DNA of 59,518 nucleotides. Origin: Chiloscyllium plagiosum. Taxonomy: Eukaryota. Of the stretch, positions 14,871 to 59,518 are shown piece by piece (position 1 is the first letter of the stretch; every line of letters begins with the position of its first letter). The position numbers and the translations under genes are program-made. Below the pieces are notes generated by a model that was given only the letters and a program-made list of their open reading frames with translations, ran no database searches and was not told where the DNA came from. The stretch covers positions 16,977,177 to 17,036,694 of the forward strand of contig NC_057719.1 in the NCBI RefSeq assembly GCF_004010195.1, written 5' to 3'.

Positions 14871-15565
14871 TATATTGTATAATATTTATGGTCAACAGAG
14901 TTGTTTTCTTCATCCTTTCAGTAGGGTGTATCACCCAGAGAAGGTATACCTCAGAATTTTGTACAGTAGACGCAATAGGTCAGAACATCAGCACTTTGAT
15001 CTACTCTGAAAGTTTCTATACACTAGGGGCCTTTTGAAAAAGATTATTGGATGCTTCTGTTACTCAGCCTTTTCAATTTTAGTTTAGAAAAGTCCCATGC
15101 AGATGTGGCATATCAATGCTACAGATCTATTGCTATGATCTGGCAATGCTATCGAGCTGAATTGAGCAAAGCTTACATTACAACATGTTGTCTGATACTT
15201 GTGTGGTTGGCTTTGTGACCCTGAATGAGAAGGAAGTAAGATGGACAAAGAGATGACACTTGCCCCTTGCCCCTTGAGCAGGCTTCACTTGTCTTGATGC
15301 CTGTTGTGCTTTGATATCTCACAATGGCTACAGTGACTTTGTCAATTGAATCGAAAGGCCTGCAACTATATTTTTTATTCACTCATGACAAAGCTGGGCC
15401 AACACTTATTGCCTTTCTCTAAATGTCCTTGAGAAGATGATGGTGAGCTGCCTTCTTGAACCTCTGCTATCCATTTTGTTTGTGTACCCCCTTGATAATG
15501 TCAGGGAGGCAGGTCCTTTGACCCAGTGTCTCTGAAAGAGTGGCAATATATTTCCACATCAGATT

Positions 15566-15754
15566 GACAAGGTCAGAAGTCATATGACACCAGGTTATAG
15601 TACACCAGGTTTATTTGAAATCACAAGCTTTCGGAGCACTGTTCCTTCATCAGCCAAAAGCTTGTGATTTCAAATAAACCTGTTGGACTATAATCCAGTG
15701 TCGTGTGACTTCTGACTTTGTCCACCCTCGTCCAACACTGGCACCTGCACATCA
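15566..15754. mobile_element. Fold-back (inverted) HHR element, family B subfamily, inserted in a LINE tail
   Basis: Arms 15566-15634 and 15654-15722 are reverse complements; minus-strand core CTGATGA-A-GGAA cagtg CTCC-GAA-AGCT-T at 15625-15653. Confidence 0.8.
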
Positions 15755-18700
15755 AGTCAAGTTGGGGGGTGGCTTGGAGGGGAGCTTGCAGGGTGGTAGT
15801 GTTCCCATATATCCACTGAGTCTTCCTATTGTGAAGGTTAGCTGTGTTTCCAATAATGAGGGTTTATGTGGTTAGATGGCTAGACAGAGTATTTTCCATT
15901 TGATATTTTGATAGTTATGTGAGATTACTGAGCAGAACATGCACCATACTCCAAAGGTCGCATCAGGATCCCTGGATGGAGTTGTAAAATGAAAGGCAAT
16001 TAAAAAGAAAAATTATTTCATGCAATATGAATATCACTGGTAATCATTTGTTGACCCTCACTAATTCTCCTGGGGTGGGGGGTGTGGGGGCATGGCATCA
16101 GAAACCTCTGTCCTTCATTGCCAAATAGGTTTTTACTTATCTCTGTCAAATTACTTTGGGTTTTGCATCAATACAAAAGTAATAATGAAGATTAAACAGT
16201 TTGACAGTGAGCAGGATGTGTGGGAGCTTATAGTATATATGGAGGACACGAGGTAGCTAGATGGAGATTTATCCTTTTGGAATAGACAAGTATTATGGAG
16301 GGATTATTGAGGACAATGGAGGTAGGCTAAGTGGCTTGGTATAAAGAGGATTTTTGTGGTTGGTGAGGTGGGTCGTGGATAACCATTTTCTCATTGTGCT
16401 GAAATAAAGTGCTAATTGACCACTGTCTCTCAATGCGAAACCTGTTCTTTTCTCGTGATGTTACCTCGGGATTTTACAAAAGGACTATAACTCATGAGTG
16501 GCTGGGGTCTGAGTGAGCTGAGAAAGATTTCCATGTGGGTGATACATTGTGAATGATGTAATATTCTCTGAGTGATTCATTCCAGTGTTTTAAATGCATG
16601 CTGGAATCAGACTGAGTGATAATTCACTGCTGCCATGATATTAATGTCATGTCAGCAGACAAAAAAAGTATCACTTGAACCCAGGCAATGAAGATAGTTT
16701 TAGTGCAGATACCACAAGTGTGGAGATAAAGGGTGAGTGAAATTATGTCTGTGTGTGGCATTCCACAATTATTGAATAATAACTGTCTGATGACACTGTG
16801 AGGGAGACCACATAAACCCCTTTTATTGGAAACACAGCTAACCTTCAGCCACACGAGTCAAATACAACTCCTCTCATGATACCACAATGAGTCATTTTGC
16901 TGCTTACAGAATACAGTTGCATTGTCAGTGCTGCAAAAAGAAATGACTGTATTTTACCTGCTCGGCAATGGCAGCCTTCCTCCTGTGTTAAGGACCTCCG
17001 AAATCGTCATCACGTCAAACATTTTTTTATTGAGTCAGGACAATGTCTAGAGCTGAACCCTAATTATAGAGTGAATGCAGTCAGGGGTGCAGTTCAGAGT
17101 TTGTTAATGAGTTAAAGGGAGGAGGTACTCTTCAAAGTGATATTTAGTACTGGTTAATTGGCAGCACAATGAATGACATTTTATTGTAAAACAGTAATCC
17201 AAGCATTCAAGTACCCTGAATGATATGAACTGCTGCCTGAGATTCATTAAGAAATAAAAAATATTATGTAAATATATGAATTGTAAGTTGCATTTTTTTA
17301 CTTGTGTTGTCTGTTGATTTTCCCGATGTCATTTGATTTGTGGAAAGATAGTGAGCTCTCGTTTCAGTGGTCATGTGAAATTAACATAACACTCCTAAGA
17401 GGATAGGGAGAGAGGACCAGTGTTATTTTCATGCTGACAGCATCATTTGATCGAGCTATTGGTCATCTGCCCGAATATAATCCTTATGTGGCTCAGTATC
17501 AAATGTACTCCCTGTGAAGAATCTTGGGATGTTTTATCGTGTCAAAAATGTGATATAAATGAAAGTTGTTGCTCTGATTGGTCATTTGTCTCATTGTAGT
17601 TTGAGGGACCTTGTTATTTGCAAAATGTCTTCCAACTTTCTCTTAAATATTTCAACAATGACACACCATAAAAGTATATTATTGGATTCAAAAAGCTTTT
17701 GAAGGTGCTATGGTCATGAAAGATGCTGTTAGAACACAATTTCCTACTACCTTGAAATAATATGATTCATCCTTATATACATGTTTGTAACCGTCTAAAA
17801 GATAGTGAGAGGTGAGTGTTAAAGGTTAAAAAGTATGATGCGGAAGTTGAAAGGGTGTATTTCTAAATGCTTCAAAAGTTCCTTTCACTTTTTTGCATAA
17901 TATATTCAAATTCAGGGGCAGCATTTTCAATATTGATTATAGTTTCCATTCCTGATTGAGCTGTGTCAGCAAGTCATGTTTGGGTGAGAACAGAGGAGTT
18001 CAAAAGCTTGGCTAAAATTTGAAGGTTTTGTGGAATGCATTAAAGGAGAGGTGAGAGGAACAGAGGTTTCTGGAGGAAATTTCAGAGCTTAGGGAATCTT
18101 TGGTGGCTGAAAGTTGGGGCACCAATGGTCTGGTGATGGCAATTCCTAGGAAATGGCTGAAGAGGTCACTACTGAGGCATCACAGAGTTCTCACAGAATT
18201 GCAAGAAATCATGAGGGTGAATTTGAAAATAAAGATGCAAATTTTAAATATGAGAATTACTGGATTGGAAACCAAATATGAGTCACTAAGCACATGGTGT
18301 TTATTACAACATGGTCAGTAGAGTTTTGGCTGCGTTCAGAAATGGACTCTAGTTTATTGTCAGTCCTGCGACACCACTAAAGTCAATGATTTCACCTTTG
18401 ATTCTCCACTTGAGTTCAGATATTCCCCATCTCCTCCCTTAACTAAAAAAACACTACAGATATAAGATGCAATTCTGCCTTTGAATGATTTAGTTGCATT
18501 GCCTAAGCTAATACAACATCTTTGCATCAGTGTCTTTTCATGTAAGCACAAGTATAGCAACCTATATTGGAAATCTAAATATATTAATAAAGGCCAGAAA
18601 GTACTGCTACAGGCCAAGAAATGTATGAATTTATGTATTCACATTTAAAACCTTTGTACTTGGAAGTATTTTATAATTATAAGTGGACTCCTGTAATCCA

Positions 18701-19999: not shown

Positions 20000-20440
20000 A
20001 AAGTACAAGGGCAGAAAAGGAACAAGGAAGGAAGCAGGAACAGGTAGAGTGACTGTGCAGAAGCAGAAAAATGGCCAGGAAATTGGGTGAGATTCAGGGC
20101 CAGGGGAAAGGCCAGGGTGTAGGGAAAAGTGCAGGGACTGGGGTGGAGAATGGGACACAAACAGGGACAGGGAATTCACCAGGAAAGGGACAGGGAATGG
20201 GACAGGGAGTGGGATATGGATATGGAATGCAACAGGGAATGAGATAAGGACTAGGTTGGAGAATGGTACAGAATTGGTCCAATTCCCTGCTCCTTTATCA
20301 TTCCCTGTTGCATTCTCTGTTCCTGCTCCAGCAGCGGGGAATGGTGCAAGGAATTGTACAGGGCCAGGGAGTAAGGCAAGGAGTAGGGCAGAGATAGTGA
20401 ATGGGATATGGACAGGGAAATGAATAGGCACAGGAAAGAA
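20000..20440 (+). repeat. Purine-rich low-complexity, degenerate 6-mer repeat (gggaca/gggaat)
   Basis: Visible periodicity, e.g. gggacagggaatgggacagggagtgggatatggatatggaat. Confidence 0.7.
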
Positions 20441-22400: not shown

Positions 22401-23087
22401 TTTGATGTTGTCCACAAATGAGTTGCAAGGTCTCAATGGTTTTCAGGGAGTTACTGGTCATCAATCAGTATATGCAGGAAATGTCTGAGATTGTGCCAAT
22501 CATCCCCAGACTGCATTTACCTCTTGGGTGTCTGTTAATATCATAAAGAATATCCAGGTGTCTCGGAGTGTGTTTATACTTCTACAAACTTTCCGACACA
22601 GTAAGCTTAAAAACCTGCTTCTGCACAATGCAGCCTTTGTTTCTGGAAGTCGAAATTGCCGTTCTGCACCTTAATCCCATAATAGGAATGGCTGTAAATT
22701 GTTACATTGTTCCAATCCCTGTGAGGAATTGTAAAGCAAAATAACCAAATTTACCAAATAACCCTCAGAGAAGAAATTACCAACAAGATTTCACTTCTGT
22801 AACATTTACCTTAATGTGAATCAGAGCCAATTCAAGTTAAACGTGGATTAACATGTTTAAAATGATGATGATTTAAAAAGATACTTCAAATAAAAGATTA
22901 CATTTCCATTTAAATAGCCAATACAACACAAATATTCACATCACTTCCCACACAATGTGGCACTACATAGCTGCATAATTCCACAGTATGCTGCTCATTA
23001 TTCATGCCTAAAGGCTGGTTAGACAGCATCTTCCAAACCCACTACAGATGCAGGGTACATCTAGCAAAGCCTAAAAGGCAGACCTTA

Positions 23088-23273
23088 ATGTGGAGGTGCC
23101 GGTGTTGGACTGAGGTGTACAAAGTCAGAAGTCACATGACACTAGGTTATACCCCAACAGGTTTATTTGAAATCACAAGCCTGTGTTATCAAAAAAACCT
23201 ATTGGGCTATAACCTGGTGTTATGTGACTTCTGACTTTGTCCACCCCGGTTTAACACTGACAACTCCAAGTCA
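23088..23273. mobile_element. Symmetric hairpin element made of the post-cleavage part of the family B repeat
   Basis: About 92-bp inverted arms with the axis at tcacaag|cctgtg (23179/23180). Confidence 0.82.
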
Positions 23274-23482
23274 CAGCCTGACTTGGAAATATATCGCCGA
23301 TCCTTCAGTGTTGTTGTGACAAAATCTTGGAATTCCCTCTATAACGGCATTGTGGGTCGATGTACAGCACATAAACTGCAGTGGTTTAAGAAGGCAGCTA
23401 ACTGCCATTTTCTTAAGGGAAACAGGGATCAGGCAATAAATGTTGGCCCAGCCAGTGACGCCCACATTCCATAAGTGAATTT
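23274..23482 (+). mobile_element. 3' tail of a second CR1/L2-group LINE family
   Basis: cctgacttggaaatatatcgcc...ggcaataaatgttggcccagccagtgacgcccacattcc; also present at 50392-50645 (-), 15372-15565 (-) and about 36960-37100 (-). Confidence 0.75.
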
Positions 23483-26287: not shown

Positions 26288-26530
26288 TGCTGGGCAGAAG
26301 TGGGTACTGCAGATGCTGGAGATTAGAATCAAGATTAGAGTGTACAAAGTTACAAATCACACAACACCAAGTTATAGTCCAACAGATTTAATTGGAAGCA
26401 CACTAGCTTTCAGAGTGCCGCTCCTTCATTAGGAATGATGAAGGGCTTTTGCCCGAAACATTGATTTTCCTGCTCCTCGGATACTGCCTGACCTGCTGTG
26501 CTTTTCCAGCACCATTCTAATATTGATTCC
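26288..26530. mobile_element. Chimeric fold-back element: A(-) tail, B(-) repeat with HHR, A(+) repeat with HHR
   Basis: About 26297-26342 is the reverse of the family A 3' end; 26343-26433 is family B minus strand; 26435-26530 is family A plus strand; flanks GATTTCTTAA / GATTCCTTAA. Confidence 0.8.
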
Positions 26531-29875: not shown

Positions 29876-30369
29876 TTCTTAAAGCTTATCAGAGAAGCAA
29901 AACACTTACTTACCCCAAGTATTATCTCATTCTTAATTGGCCACTTTAATCACAGAATTATTATGGTGCTGAGGAGGCCATTTGACCCATTGTGCCTGCA
30001 CTGCCTCTATTATCTAGTCCAGCTATATTATCCAGTGCTAACCTCCTGCCTTTTCGCCATATCCCTGCACAGTATTACTATCCAAAAATCCATCCAATGC
30101 ACTCTCGAATGCATCAATTGACCTGCCTTCATCTCCCACCCTATCTCTTGCAAAAATGCAATCCCGTATTCCCAATTCCTCAACCTCCGCCGTATCTGCT
30201 CCCAGGAGGACCAGTTCCACCACAGAACACACCAGATGGCCTCCTTCTTTAGAGACCGCAATTTCCCTTCCCACGTGGTTAAAGATGCCCTCCAACACAT
30301 CTCGTCCACATCCCGCACCTCCGCCCTCAGACCCCAACACTCCAACCGTAACAAGGACAGACGCCCCTG

Positions 30370-30804
30370 GTGCTCACCTTCCACCCTACAAACCTCTGCA
30401 TAAACCAAATCATCTGCCGACATTTCCGCCATCTCCAAAAAGACCCCGCCACCAGGGATGTATTTCCCTCCCCATCCCTTTCCGCCTTCCGCAAAGACCG
30501 TTCCCTCCGTGACTACCTGGTCAGGTCCACGCCCCCCTACGACCCACCCTCCCATCCTGGCACCTTCCCCTGCCACCGCAGGAACTGTAAAACCAGCGCC
30601 CACACCTCCTCCCTCACCTCCATCCAAGGCCCTAAAGGAGCCTTCCACATCCATCAAAATTTTACCTGCACATCCACTAATATCATCTACTGTATCCGTT
30701 GCTCCCGATGCGGTCACCTCTACATTGGGGGGACTGGGCTCCTTCTAGCAGAGCGCTTTAGGGAACATCTCCGAGACACCCGCACCAATCAACCAAACCA
30801 CCCC
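30370..30804 (+). pseudogene. PLE linker plus GIY-YIG endonuclease frame (open up to the assembly gap)
   Basis: FTCTSTNIIYCIRCSRCGHLYIGGTGLLLAERFREHL: IIY..CxxC..YIG.T...R..EH. Confidence 0.9.
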
Positions 30805-30940
30805 NNNNNNNNNNNNNNNNNNNNNNNNNNNNNNNNNNNNNNNNNNNNNNNNNNNNNNNNNNNNNNNNNNNNNNNNNNNNNNNNNNNNNNNNNNNNNNNN
30901 NNNNNNNNNNNNNNNNNNNNNNNNNNNNNNNNNNNNNNNN
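30805..30940. other. Assembly gap (136 N)
   Basis: Run of n. Confidence 1.
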
Positions 30941-31012
30941 ACTCTATGCTACCATCTCCCCACCCCCACCCTCCTCTCACTTATCTCTCCACGCTTCCGG
31001 CTCTCTGCCTTT

Positions 31013-31048
31013 ATTCCTGATGAAGGGCTTTTGCCCGAAACGTCGATT
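31013..31048 (+). ncRNA. Minimal type-I hammerhead ribozyme, family A, core intact
   Basis: ATTC-CTGATGA-A-GGGC(tttt)GCCC-GAA-ACGT-C-GATT; canonical GUC triplet, predicted cleavage after C31044; stem I weak. Confidence 0.8.
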
Positions 31049-45418: not shown

Positions 45419-45562
45419 TATTACCATAGAGGGATTGCAACAAAGGTTTACCAGACTTGTTACTGGGATGGCAGAACTGTCCTATGAAGAAAAATTGGAC
45501 AAACTTGGCCTGTATTCCCTAGAGTTTCAGAACATTGAAGCCTACAAAACACTTAAAGAGAC

Positions 45563-45785
45563 ACAAAGTTAAAAATCACATAACACCAGGTTATAGTCCA
45601 ACAGGTTTAATTGGAAGAACACTAGCTTTTGGAGCACTGCTCCTTCATCAGGTTCATCACAACCACCTGATGAAGGAACGACGCTCCGAAAACTAGCGCT
45701 CCCAATTAAGCCTGTTGGACTATAACCTGGTTTTGTGGGATTTTTAACTTTGTACATCCCCAGTCCAACACCATCATCTCCAAAT
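45563..45785. mobile_element. 223-bp fold-back family B element with two divergent HHR cores and an 11-bp TSD
   Basis: Minus core 45623-45651, plus core 45667-45695; CTTAAAGAGAC at 45552-45562 and 45786-45796. Confidence 0.88.
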
Positions 45786-47214
45786 CTTAAAGAGACGGAC
45801 AGGGTAAATGCAGTTAACATGTTTCCGCAGCTTAGAAAGTGTAGAACCAGCAGCATAAGGGGAGTACTATTAAGGATGAGATAGAAATTGTTTTGCACAG
45901 TGCAGAGAATCTTTGGCATTCTCTGCCACAGAGGGCTGTGGAAGGCCAGTCTTTCATTATATGGAAAGCAGAGGTTGATAAAGTATTGATTATCAGTGGT
46001 ATAAAATGTTGTGGGGGTAGTAAGGGTAAAGGTCATTGAAGTATTCGATCAACCACGTTCGTATTAAATGGTGGGGCAAGCTCGATAGGCTGAATAGTCT
46101 ATTTCTGTTTCTACATTCGTACATTCCTAGTGGATTACCATGTAGTTATCACGTTTCTGTTTGAGGGAGTTTGCCATTCACAAATTGGCTGCTGTATATC
46201 AAATATAAATTTAAATCACACAACAGCAGTTTGAAACTTAGAACTTAACTTCAAAATTAATTAAATTTGAGCAGCCATCCATTGGTGAGGCTGAAGAAGG
46301 TAGAGCAAATGTGGCATTAAAGTTATTGGAGATATGGGCAGATAAGTAAAGATGTGGGGCGATACTAATGAGGATTGATGCAGAAAGTGAGGGTGTACAG
46401 GAGAAAGAAAATTTCAATGAAGAAAATTCCAAAGTTGTTTAGGCAGATGATAGCTGAAGAGGATTCTGAAGAAGATTTGATAAGCACGGAAGTAGAATAG
46501 AGTATATATGGCAATACTATAGCCGTATTCATCTCCTATCTAATGAGTCCTTGTGGGTCCTTCAAGCTAATGTCTCTGAAAATGTCAACAGTGCTGACTT
46601 CTTAAAACATTGGATGGTATTTAATCCTAGTGACAGGGGTCTCGCTCTCCAACTAGAGAGTTAGTGGGAGCCCCAGGTGGTCTCTTTTGAAGAAGGACCA
46701 CGGTATTAAGTGCCATTTAAGCAATTAAGGTTCAGGCCTTCCCAAGAGATTAAGGATGCCCAGGGTGCAGGACAGAATGCTGTCCCCTGAGAACCGCTGG
46801 CCAAGTGTACAGTGATTAATTAGTGTGATTAATATTCTCAGTTGAACCAGACAGACAGTGGTGCACCATTGATTTGTGTCCCTCAGAGCAACTGGGAGGG
46901 TAAAGGTATGTTCAGACTCAGTAGTTCTGTCCCAATGCCAAATGGAATCATTTGCAGAGCTGGCTTTATTCCCTTTCTAACTTATCTCAGTCTTAACATT
47001 TCTGTGTATTTTTCTATCCCCTTTTCTCTAGTTCCACCCACTCATGCCACACTGTTGGCTTCCCCACACCATCTCCTGGAAGATGTCTGGCCAGAGTGAG
47101 ACACGTTATTGCAGAGGTCACTTTTCAGACTTTCCATGTGGCAACCGCTCTCCCTGCACCTGCTTGAATACCTGTGCCAAGTGGGCTGAGGCTCTTAACT
47201 GGACATGAATTACT

Positions 47215-47403
47215 CCCTTCGAGAGTGTGGTGCAGCAGGTCAGGCAGCATCAGAGGAGCAGGAGAATCGATGAATCAGGATGAAGGGCTTATGCCTGAAA
47301 CATCAATTTGCCTGCTCCTCGGATGCTGCCTGACCTGCTGTGCTTTTCCAGCACCACACTCTTGACTCTGGTCTCCAGCATCTGCAGTCCTCACTTTCTC
47401 CTG
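47215..47403. mobile_element. Fold-back family A element with 10-bp TSD
   Basis: 47221-47272 is the reverse of about 47301-47362; ATGAATTACT at 47205-47214 and 47404-47413. Confidence 0.85.
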
Positions 47404-56408: not shown

Positions 56409-56908
56409 NNNNNNNNNNNNNNNNNNNNNNNNNNNNNNNNNNNNNNNNNNNNNNNNNNNNNNNNNNNNNNNNNNNNNNNNNNNNNNNNNNNNNNNNNNNN
56501 NNNNNNNNNNNNNNNNNNNNNNNNNNNNNNNNNNNNNNNNNNNNNNNNNNNNNNNNNNNNNNNNNNNNNNNNNNNNNNNNNNNNNNNNNNNNNNNNNNNN
56601 NNNNNNNNNNNNNNNNNNNNNNNNNNNNNNNNNNNNNNNNNNNNNNNNNNNNNNNNNNNNNNNNNNNNNNNNNNNNNNNNNNNNNNNNNNNNNNNNNNNN
56701 NNNNNNNNNNNNNNNNNNNNNNNNNNNNNNNNNNNNNNNNNNNNNNNNNNNNNNNNNNNNNNNNNNNNNNNNNNNNNNNNNNNNNNNNNNNNNNNNNNNN
56801 NNNNNNNNNNNNNNNNNNNNNNNNNNNNNNNNNNNNNNNNNNNNNNNNNNNNNNNNNNNNNNNNNNNNNNNNNNNNNNNNNNNNNNNNNNNNNNNNNNNN
56901 NNNNNNNN
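56409..56908. other. Assembly gap (500 N)
   Basis: Run of n. Confidence 1.
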
Positions 56909-57171: not shown

Positions 57172-58049
57172 AATGGACAGTGAAGAAGGTTACCTCGGAT
57201 TACAACAAGATCTTGATCAGATGGGCCAATGGGCTGAGGAGTGGCAGATGGAGTTTAATTTAGATAAATGCGAGGTGCTGCATTTTGGGAAAGCAATTTT
57301 TAGCAGGACTTATATAGTTAGTGGTAAGGTCCTGAGGAGTGTTGCTGGACAAAGAGATCTTGGAGTGCAGGTTCATAGCTCCTTGAAAGTAGAGTCGCAG
57401 GTAGATAGGATAGTGAAGAAGGTGTTTGGTATGCTTTCCTTCACTGTTTAGAACATTGAGTACAGGAATTGAGAGGTCATGTTGCAGCTGTACAGGACCT
57501 TGGTTAGGCCACTTTTGGAATATTGTGTGCAATTCTGGTCTCCATCCTATCAGAAGAATGTTGTAAAACTCGAAAAGGTTCAGAAAAGATTTACAAGGAT
57601 GTTGCCAAGGTTGGAGGATTTGTGCTATACAGAGAGGTTGAATATGCTGGGGCTGTTTTCCCTGGAGCGTTGAAGGCTGAGGGGTGACCTCATAGAGGTT
57701 TATAAAATCATGAGGGGCATGGATAGGATAAATAGACTAAGTCTTTTCCCTGGGGTGGGGGTGTCCAGAACTAGAGGGCATAGGTTTAGGGTGAGAGGGG
57801 AAAAATATAAAAGGGACCTAAAGGGCAACTTTTTCACACAGAGTATGTAATGAGCTGCCAGAGGAAGTGGTGGATACTGGTACAATTGCAACACTTAAAA
57901 GACATCTGGATGGTTATATGAATAGGAGGGGTTGTGAGGGATATGTGCCAAGTGCTAGCAAATGAGACTAGTTTACTTTCGGATATCTGGTCGGCATGGA
58001 CAAGTTGGACCAAAGGGCCTGTTTCCATGCTGTACATCTCTATGTCTCT
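57172..58049 (+). mobile_element. Young HER1/CR1 LINE 3' fragment
   Basis: DSEEGYLGLQQDLDQMGQWAEEWQMEFNLDKCEVLHFG...LVRPLLEYCVQFWSP...; tail gggcctgtttccatgctgtacatctctatg. Confidence 0.95.
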
Positions 58050-58349
58050 CATACTTTGTTTCCCTCTGATAAAAACCAGCAGTGAACAATCGATTGCATA
58101 ATCAGTGGCAAGTTCCCATTAAAACTTGTCGGACTTTTGGCAACAATGGAGTAAATCTTTAAATAAGCTGTTAATTTGAGTAGAATTTTTCAGTTTCATT
58201 CACTAAAGTTAAAATGATATCTGATACAGAAAAATTCAAATTTGTTTAATACTTTCTTAAGTTGCTTGTGGTATTGGTTTTAAAATATCGAATCAATGGT
58301 GTGGTAAAAGCTACAAGCCCATATCGCATGAAAGACTTTATTTATGTGA

Positions 58350-59518
58350 ATAGAGTCATCAAGTCATAGACACGTACAGCACCGAAACTCATCCATGCTG
58401 ACCAGATATCCCAACCCAATCAAGTCTCACCTGCCAGCACCCAGTCCATATCCCTCCAACCCCTTCCCATTCATATACTCATCCAAATGTCTTTTAAATG
58501 TTGCAATTGTACTCGCCTCCACTATTTCCTCTGGCAGCTCATTCCATACACGTACCACCTTCTGCATAAAAGTGTTGCCCCTTAAGCCTCTTTTATCTCT
58601 TTCCCCTCTCACCCTAAACCTATGCTCTCTGGTTCTGCACTCCCCGACCCCAGGGAAAAGACTTTGTCTATTTATCCTATCCATGCCCCTCATGATTTTA
58701 TAAACATCTATAAGATCATCCCTCAGTCCGATGCTCCAGGGAAAACAGACCTATCCTATTCAACCTCTCCCTATAGCTCAAATCTTCCAACCCTGACAAC
58801 ATCCTCGTAAATCTTTTCTGGACCCTTTCAAGTTTCACAACTTGAAAGAATTTTTAGCAGGACTTATATAGTTAGTGGTAAGGTCCTGAGGAGTGTTGCT
58901 GGACAAAGAGATCTTGGAGTGCAGGTTCATAGCTCCTTGAAAGTAGAGTCGCAGGTAGATAGGATAGTGAAGAAGGTGTTTGGTTAAACATCTATAAGAT
59001 CATCCCTCAGTCCGATGCTCCAGGGAAAACAGCCCTATCCTATTCAACCTCTCCTTATAGCTCAAATCTTCCAACCCTGACAACATCCTCGTAAATCTTT
59101 TCTGGACCCTTTCAAGTTTCACAACTTCCTTCCTATAGGAAGGAGACCAGAATTGCACTCAATATTCCAAAAGTGACCTATGCAACGTCCCATACAGCTG
59201 CAACTCAATAAAGAAAAGTAAACCAAACGCCTTCTTCACTATCTTATCTCCTTGCGATTCTACTTTCAAAGAGCTATGAACCTGTACTCCAAGGTCTCTT
59301 TGTTCAGCAACACTCCCTCGGACCTTACCATTAAGTGTATAAGTCCTGCTAAGATTTGCTTTCCCAAAATGCAGCACCTCGCATTTATCTGAATTAAACT
59401 CCATCTGCCACTTCTCAACCCATCGGCCCATCTGGTCCAGATCCTGTTGTAAGCTGAGGTAACCCTCTTCGCTGTCCACTACACCTCCAATTTTGGTGTC
59501 ATCTGCAAACTTACTAAC
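58350..59518 (-). mobile_element. Young HER1/CR1 LINE 3' fragment (runs off the window) with an internal rearrangement
   Basis: Minus frames SKFADDTKIGG, DLDQMGRWVEKWQMEFN, VVRVWNELPEE. Confidence 0.95.
58701..59127 (+). repeat. 143-bp direct duplication flanking a 141-bp insert copied from 57289-57430
   Basis: 58701-58843 vs 58985-59127 differ at 2 nt; 58849-58984 is identical to 57295-57430. Confidence 0.93.

Follow-up and report, generated by a model that had tools for sequence, protein, structure and literature searches.

The stretch of DNA analysed here (the window; 59,518 nucleotides from Chiloscyllium plagiosum) carries at 23088-23271 a genuine hairpin, in which two Penelope-like 3' ends are set head to head and mirrored at an AAGCTT centre. 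It lies between two pieces of a host repeat, and the same window holds related copies with which it can be compared:

23002..23087, plus strand: upstream piece of an abundant host repeat (23002-23042 supported, 23043-23087 poorly aligned)
23088..23179, minus strand: left arm, a Penelope-like 3' end of the AAGCTT subfamily, made of the pLTR part downstream of the hammerhead core and a tail of about 30 bases; 4-5 private changes
23177..23182, no strand: central hexamer AAGCCT around the loop-free axis 23179|23180, a decayed AAGCTT (hammerhead A14, helix III AGCT, N17)
23180..23268, plus strand: right arm, the same Penelope-like 3' end facing the other way and likewise tailed, with 11-12 private changes; its terminal CTCCA also occurs in the host repeat
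23264..23467, plus strand: continuation of the host repeat downstream of the hairpin; four of the five other window copies have a host motif that is absent from this insertion site
15566..15753, no strand: comparison copy B, a head-to-head pair of the same AAGCTT subfamily, with a core at 15629-15653 (minus strand) between AAGCTT at 15625-15630 and at 15658-15663, and a tail on one arm only
45563..45788, no strand: comparison copy C, a head-to-head pair of the AAGCTA subfamily, with a core on both arms, a tail on one arm and an 11-base target duplication
30352..31040, plus strand: remains of a reading frame, weakly matching GIY-YIG and running into the hammerhead core of a second Penelope-like family

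The inverted arms of the hairpin, 23088-23179 and 23180-23271, pair at 74 of 92 positions, with 18 differences and no gaps, and the symmetry axis falls exactly at 23179|23180 without any loop. In a scan of 60 candidate axes (30 positions, each with a loop of 0 or 1), this loop-free axis gave 69 matches over 85 positions and the runner-up 34. Folded as DNA, the strand reached -66 kcal/mol (z -12.7), a value equalled by none of 200 shuffled sequences. The first-pass annotation, made from the letters alone, had described arms of about 92 bp meeting at TCACAAG|CCTGTG, one substitution away from AAGCTT; both the geometry and the reading of the centre at 23177-23182 were borne out. Contigs from four of 24 listed sequencing runs (X4 and X5 from organism A, X12 from organism B and X20 from organism C) were aligned on 22930-23469 at 80% likeness, and each of the four had T as its majority letter at 23181, so that AAGCTT can be taken as the ancestral centre. 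On the right the element proper stops at 23268, and 16 of the 89 arm positions in that span differ. The hairpin holds no coding sequence and has no evident function.

Eight further arms in the window can be aligned in register with both hairpin arms, and seven of the eight possess a core of the CTGATGA...GAAA type, decayed in some cases; after this core come AGCT and a helix I of three bases. Judged by its sequence, the motif of these sister arms is a predicted minimal type I hammerhead ribozyme of metazoan Penelope-like elements, resembling those in the available text of Cervera and De la Pena (2014, PMC4209133) in its CTGATGA, helix II, GAAA, palindromic positions 15.2-16.2 and three-base helix I. 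Unlike those hammerheads, the hairpin at 23088-23271 has neither a core nor helix II left and cannot act as a ribozyme; all that remains of the motif is the palindrome of helix III together with the 3' strand of helix I. Four of the ten aligned arms end at about offset 62-66 and six extend some 30 bases further, both hairpin arms being tailed; two classes of arm end about 30 bases apart match the optional tail described in the available parts of Craig et al. (2021, PMC8557442) and Frangieh et al. (2024, PMC11167929). The features of EN+ Penelope-like elements found here are a pLTR with the minimal hammerhead motif (in the sister arms), an optional 3' tail of 30-40 bases and an inverted, 5'-truncated copy adjoining head to head. 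A possible protein remnant occurs in the second family, whose hammerhead at 31017 is preceded by the frame at 30352-31020 with a GIY-YIG match scoring 19.9 bits (PF01541, E 0.00096), under the cut-off of 22.6. At 2087-2250 another hammerhead core is followed, right after the palindrome, by apparent decayed coding sequence, and the sequence after this core recurs at 1559-1708 or 2184-2333 in a self-comparison of the window. Membership in the non-LTR retrozymes, tandem head-to-tail units that each bear a hammerhead according to the accessible text of bioRxiv 10.64898/2026.07.22.740005, was rejected, the hairpin being inverted, core-less and a single unit. A pattern built on the subfamily tail had no matches in metagenome and viral contigs; a second pattern matched once in metagenome contigs and once in prokaryote genome contigs, and both matches, 20-23 bases long with no further similarity, were dismissed as chance.

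The relation of the hairpin to the ribozyme can be read from copy B. There, the minus strand at 15625-15632 reads GAAAGCTT, inside the CTGATGA...GAAA core at 15629-15653, which is the GAA-AGCT-T that the first-pass annotation had assigned to the subfamily. The same annotation had placed the hairpin axis on the helix III palindrome and considered the catalytic core lost, and both points hold: the axis is the centre of helix III, and no CUGANGA plus GAAA core with helix II occurs on either strand of 23084-23275. Under the standard hammerhead numbering, the predicted cut would come directly after GAAAGCTT, GAAA being G12-A15.1, followed by G15.2, C16.2, U16.1 and N17. The hairpin axis then falls between 15.2 and 16.2, that is, at the centre of helix III and three bases 5' of the cut, and helix III in the strict sense is the four-base AGCT, with the flanking A and T as A14 and N17. 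On this numbering the earlier statement that the element is only the sequence 3' of the cleavage site was mistaken, each arm keeping three bases 5' of the predicted cut. With six such bases kept at the centre, the hairpin points either to an uncut template or to the trimming of a precursor that was longer. An origin from ribozyme-cut RNA was rejected, because a cDNA of such RNA ends before AAGCTT and cannot yield the centre. An uncut template agrees with the in vitro behaviour of the Penelope protein, for which unprocessed RNA is the main substrate in the available text of Frangieh et al. (2024). Rfam searches of the window gave no hammerhead match at E values up to 1; the five matches obtained were all to microRNA models under their gathering scores, none of them at 23088-23271. 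Weak, sub-threshold microRNA matches of this kind are drawn by a purine-rich short-unit repeat at 20150-20400, which switches strand and contains a hairpin at about 20224-20316. Folded as single RNA strands, four sister cores gave no full hammerhead fold, as expected for motifs of the dimer type.

Besides the hairpin under study, the window contains four more head-to-head pairs, B (15566-15753), C (45563-45788), D (26340-26516) and E (47233-47389); no two of the five share a centre, and every centre is either within the hammerhead or next to it. In copy B the two AAGCTT copies are 33 bases apart, and when this 33-base interval is removed, the remainder is in ungapped register with the hairpin and agrees with it at 128 of 158 positions. 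Of palindromes of at least six bases, the two copy B arms share AAGCTT and no other, which makes AAGCTT a natural point for symmetric joining; the other long palindromes are private to single copies or belong to a sister subfamily. The target-site duplication of copy C, 11 bases long, lies at 45552-45562 and 45786-45796. Pair D belongs to a two-family arrangement at 26295-26530, which consists of a family-2 minus-strand tail, a family-1 arm running through its own core and a family-2 plus-strand arm starting within its own core. In pair E, a family-2 hairpin, the left arm likewise stops inside the helix III palindrome (here of the ACGT type), the second arm end at a palindrome in this window, and six other bases separate it from the right arm, which starts in the core.

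At the insertion site no target-site duplication was found; the flanks of 23088-23271 agree best over 7 of 8 bases, in a match that does not lie at the ends. Target-site duplications vary in Penelope-like elements of this class, and copies without one are described (Arkhipova et al. 2013, PMC3846280, as far as its text was available). The right end of the hairpin shares CTCCA with the host repeat. The missing host motif implies that the locus has lost bases at some time. The hairpin and copy B share their host repeat, at sites some 20 bases from each other in repeat coordinates, and have different host junctions. Among the best 15 of 238 contig joints, those leading from 23042 to 23277 or 23279 skip the hairpin. 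The host repeat also contains a small hairpin (23264-23285, and 15556-15566 / 15753-15765 at copy B) whose arms resemble the end of the element tail at about 8 of 10 bases; this resemblance might favour priming there, on the strength of two cases noticed after the fact. In the left flank, a contig of organism A (run X4, record 17) matches 22930-23115 with no substitutions and 17 gap letters, which probably represent a polymorphic deletion.

The divergence between the arms was compared with the divergence of each arm from its relatives, along the lines proposed in the first-pass annotation. The 16 differences in 89 bases comprise 11 changes private to the right arm and 5 private to the left when window copies serve as reference, or 12 and 4 with the run-majority letters, an imbalance that is not significant (p = 0.077); the arm-to-arm difference is thus the sum of the private changes of both arms. 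Changes are not significantly clustered near the axis (4 of 15 versus 12 of 74 positions, p = 0.46). Both arms carry a G at offset 26 that is found in none of the eight other window arms and stands against 94-95% of the X4 depth at 23153 and 23206, and this shared rare letter indicates that the arms derive from one template. The overall pattern of divergence fits a single template followed by independent decay.

The contigs bear on both the age of the locus and the frequency of its architecture, with the proviso that contigs break in repeats and that old copies can drop under 80% likeness, so that contig counts are to be read as bounds. Contigs of organisms B and C cover 22934-23112 with four differences each, and the left outer junction is common to organisms A, B and C (records 1, 9 and 17), which places this junction before the separation of the three related species. 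The orthologous contigs of B and C end at 23112, within the left arm, and among the pieces listed none spans the centre. Contigs that leave the left arm at 23180 and run into the core number 397, 463, 466 and 274 in X4, X12, X20 and X5, respectively. Those with T at 23181 number 56, 60, 57 and 36, an upper bound that includes right arms of longer pairs. The AAGCTT-axis form therefore accounts for at most 11-12% of the informative contigs in the four runs, and the depth at 23181 is 0.3-0.6% of that in the preceding bin. The listings comprised the best 40 of 181 letter rows, 24 of 2005 loose ends and the above-mentioned joints. Of 12 listed table rows, 4 re-enter at 23177-23183 after varied letters; together with the differing centres in the window, these varied letters indicate that centres vary from one insertion to the next. 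Among the 32 pieces listed (79,220 more exist), two span the axis and have different ends. One, X20 record 10, is a gapless independent copy of 100 bases covering 23120-23219, with 19 differences and its outer end at 23120; the other, X4 record 18, is a near-axis copy with gaps. The AAGCTT axis thus recurs at another locus yet stays a minority form.

Considering these observations together, the hairpin is probably a single old, 5'-truncated Penelope-like insertion, in which a cDNA end annealed through AAGCTT at the time of insertion. In such an event, target-primed reverse transcription would have copied uncut element RNA from the tail to helix III or past it. The resulting cDNA end, ...CACAAGCTT, being self-complementary, six of its bases could anneal to a second cDNA made from the opposite strand of the cut target; alternatively, a template switch may have led the same end to anneal to its own strand. 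A perfect mirror of 89-92 bases would then result from fill-in and be left to neutral decay. The palindrome would act as a microhomology, and ribozyme cutting would not be needed. In support of the individual steps, the in vitro work of Frangieh et al. (2024, available text) shows a Penelope protein that cuts each strand of the target and extends both, and head-to-head Penelope pairs with junction palindromes were read as products of self-priming in 2013 (Arkhipova et al., available text). Several findings count against joining at insertion: a true intramolecular fold-back at a six-base palindrome would, by direct reading, leave a stem of only 2 base pairs, the AAGCTT-axis form is rare, the private changes are lopsided and host sequence is missing at the site. 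The inference of the first-pass annotation, cDNA self-priming or template switching through the palindrome, therefore stands in part. Joining through AAGCTT at insertion is the likeliest route, given the axis, the one-template G and the independent copy; the minority status of the form and the fact that a later deletion gives the same product weigh on the other side.

That later deletion is a less likely but serious alternative. A longer pair resembling copy B would have lost its core by microhomology repair between the two direct AAGCTT copies, following a hairpin-loop break or replication slippage. The 33-base spacing in copy B and its ungapped register with the hairpin once the interval is removed speak for such a deletion, arms that continue into the core form the larger group of contigs, and the locus is old, being shared by three species, and has lost some host sequence. 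Microhomology-mediated deletions in Penelope copies have also been reported (Arkhipova et al. 2013, in the part available). On the other hand, the deletion would have made a longer perfect palindrome. Long palindromes usually lose symmetry at their centre, the opposite outcome. No joint or allele with a longer centre was seen at the locus, which is no real test, as the orthologous contigs do not span the centre. Since the deletion also predicts an excess of AAGCTT axes, counting enrichment cannot separate the two routes unless the copies are split by age.

A sequence of two events is much less probable. Here, a younger copy corresponding to the left arm would have landed head-on in an older one corresponding to the right arm, its cDNA end annealing to the older AAGCTT and deleting the older core. 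The private changes, 11-12 on the right versus 4-5 on the left, have the direction expected, a two-family head-to-head pair is present at 26340-26516, and in vitro a Penelope protein introduces nicks into the pLTR of its own element (Frangieh et al. 2024, available text). However, the asymmetry falls short of significance, and the rare G at offset 26 is unlikely to have reached both arms from two independent sources.

Least probable of all, and very improbable in itself, is a self-propagating non-autonomous family, whether the core-less hairpin spreads in the manner of a MITE or is carried as a unit in the host repeat: recurrence of the axis at one or two other loci and the shared host repeat of the hairpin and copy B, about 20 bases apart, speak for it, whereas the low relative depth at 23181 (itself a bound and not a count), a depth in the bin of the hairpin-host junction (23254-23271) at or below about a fifteenth of both neighbouring bins, 229-361 contigs per run with normal host sequence before 23277, the different host junctions of the hairpin and copy B and the different outer end of X20 record 10 speak against it. 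In place of the many copies with uniform structure and ends that define a MITE, 2 of the 32 listed pieces span the axis, and their ends differ. A composite family of hairpin plus host sequence was rejected on the same evidence of contig depth and junctions.

The architecture itself has been described before. As in the inverted pLTR structures of EN+ Penelope-like elements (Arkhipova et al. 2013; Craig et al. 2021; both from the available text), the 3' ends lie head to head, the copies are 5'-truncated, the junction is palindromic and a tail of 30-40 bases is present, with self-priming proposed there as the cause. The hairpin differs from those pairs in that its arms are stubs of about 90 bases without coding sequence or target duplication, and in bearing the tail on both arms, where the same texts describe one end as the rule. 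Its axis coincides with the hammerhead helix III palindrome, a link that does not appear in the available parts of either paper; nor was any connection between this palindrome and an inversion axis found in the titles or available passages of the literature searched, which is not proof of absence. AAGCTT represents an uncommon join point within a known kind of structure. The Anolis Poseidon element PAc offers a further parallel in vitro, as two starts of reverse transcription yield copies with and without tail (compare the ends at about offsets 62 and 92 here), both target strands are extended and uncut RNA serves as template; the available text of Frangieh et al. (2024) does not treat the formation of inverted junctions.

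Joining of opposite-strand ends at short complementarity, as proposed for the hairpin, is also a feature of L1 twin priming and of microhomology-mediated end joining. What L1 twin priming inverts is a part of one RNA that lies further upstream, and the 3' end is not duplicated, unlike in the hairpin. How Penelope-like elements make inverted ends and what purpose their hammerheads serve are both regarded as open questions (Craig et al. 2021; Frangieh et al. 2024; available text). To these the hairpin adds one point, a centre that includes bases 5' of the predicted cut and would come from uncut RNA or a longer precursor. It is conceivable, though speculative and rather unlikely, that the helix III palindrome, kept by Penelope hammerheads for dimer folding, has a second role as a preferred annealing site for cDNA, in which case spacer-free hairpins would pile up there in young insertions across families of both the AGCT and ACGT types. 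Such a role, if true, would tie the sequence of the ribozyme, and not its cutting, to the unexplained inverted Penelope ends, and a hotspot at this axis in young copies would leave a mark by which the joining step could be counted. The hairpin by itself, a single old locus with a minority architecture that two mechanisms explain equally, changes little.

Two further inverted structures were noted elsewhere in the window. A 41-base inverted repeat, 93% complementary, at 15832-15872 and 16807-16847, with 934 bases between its arms, may represent the candidate ends of a DNA transposon remnant. Long inverted repeats of 109-188 bases, 80-88% complementary, cluster at 57174-59478 beside an assembly gap at 56409-56908.
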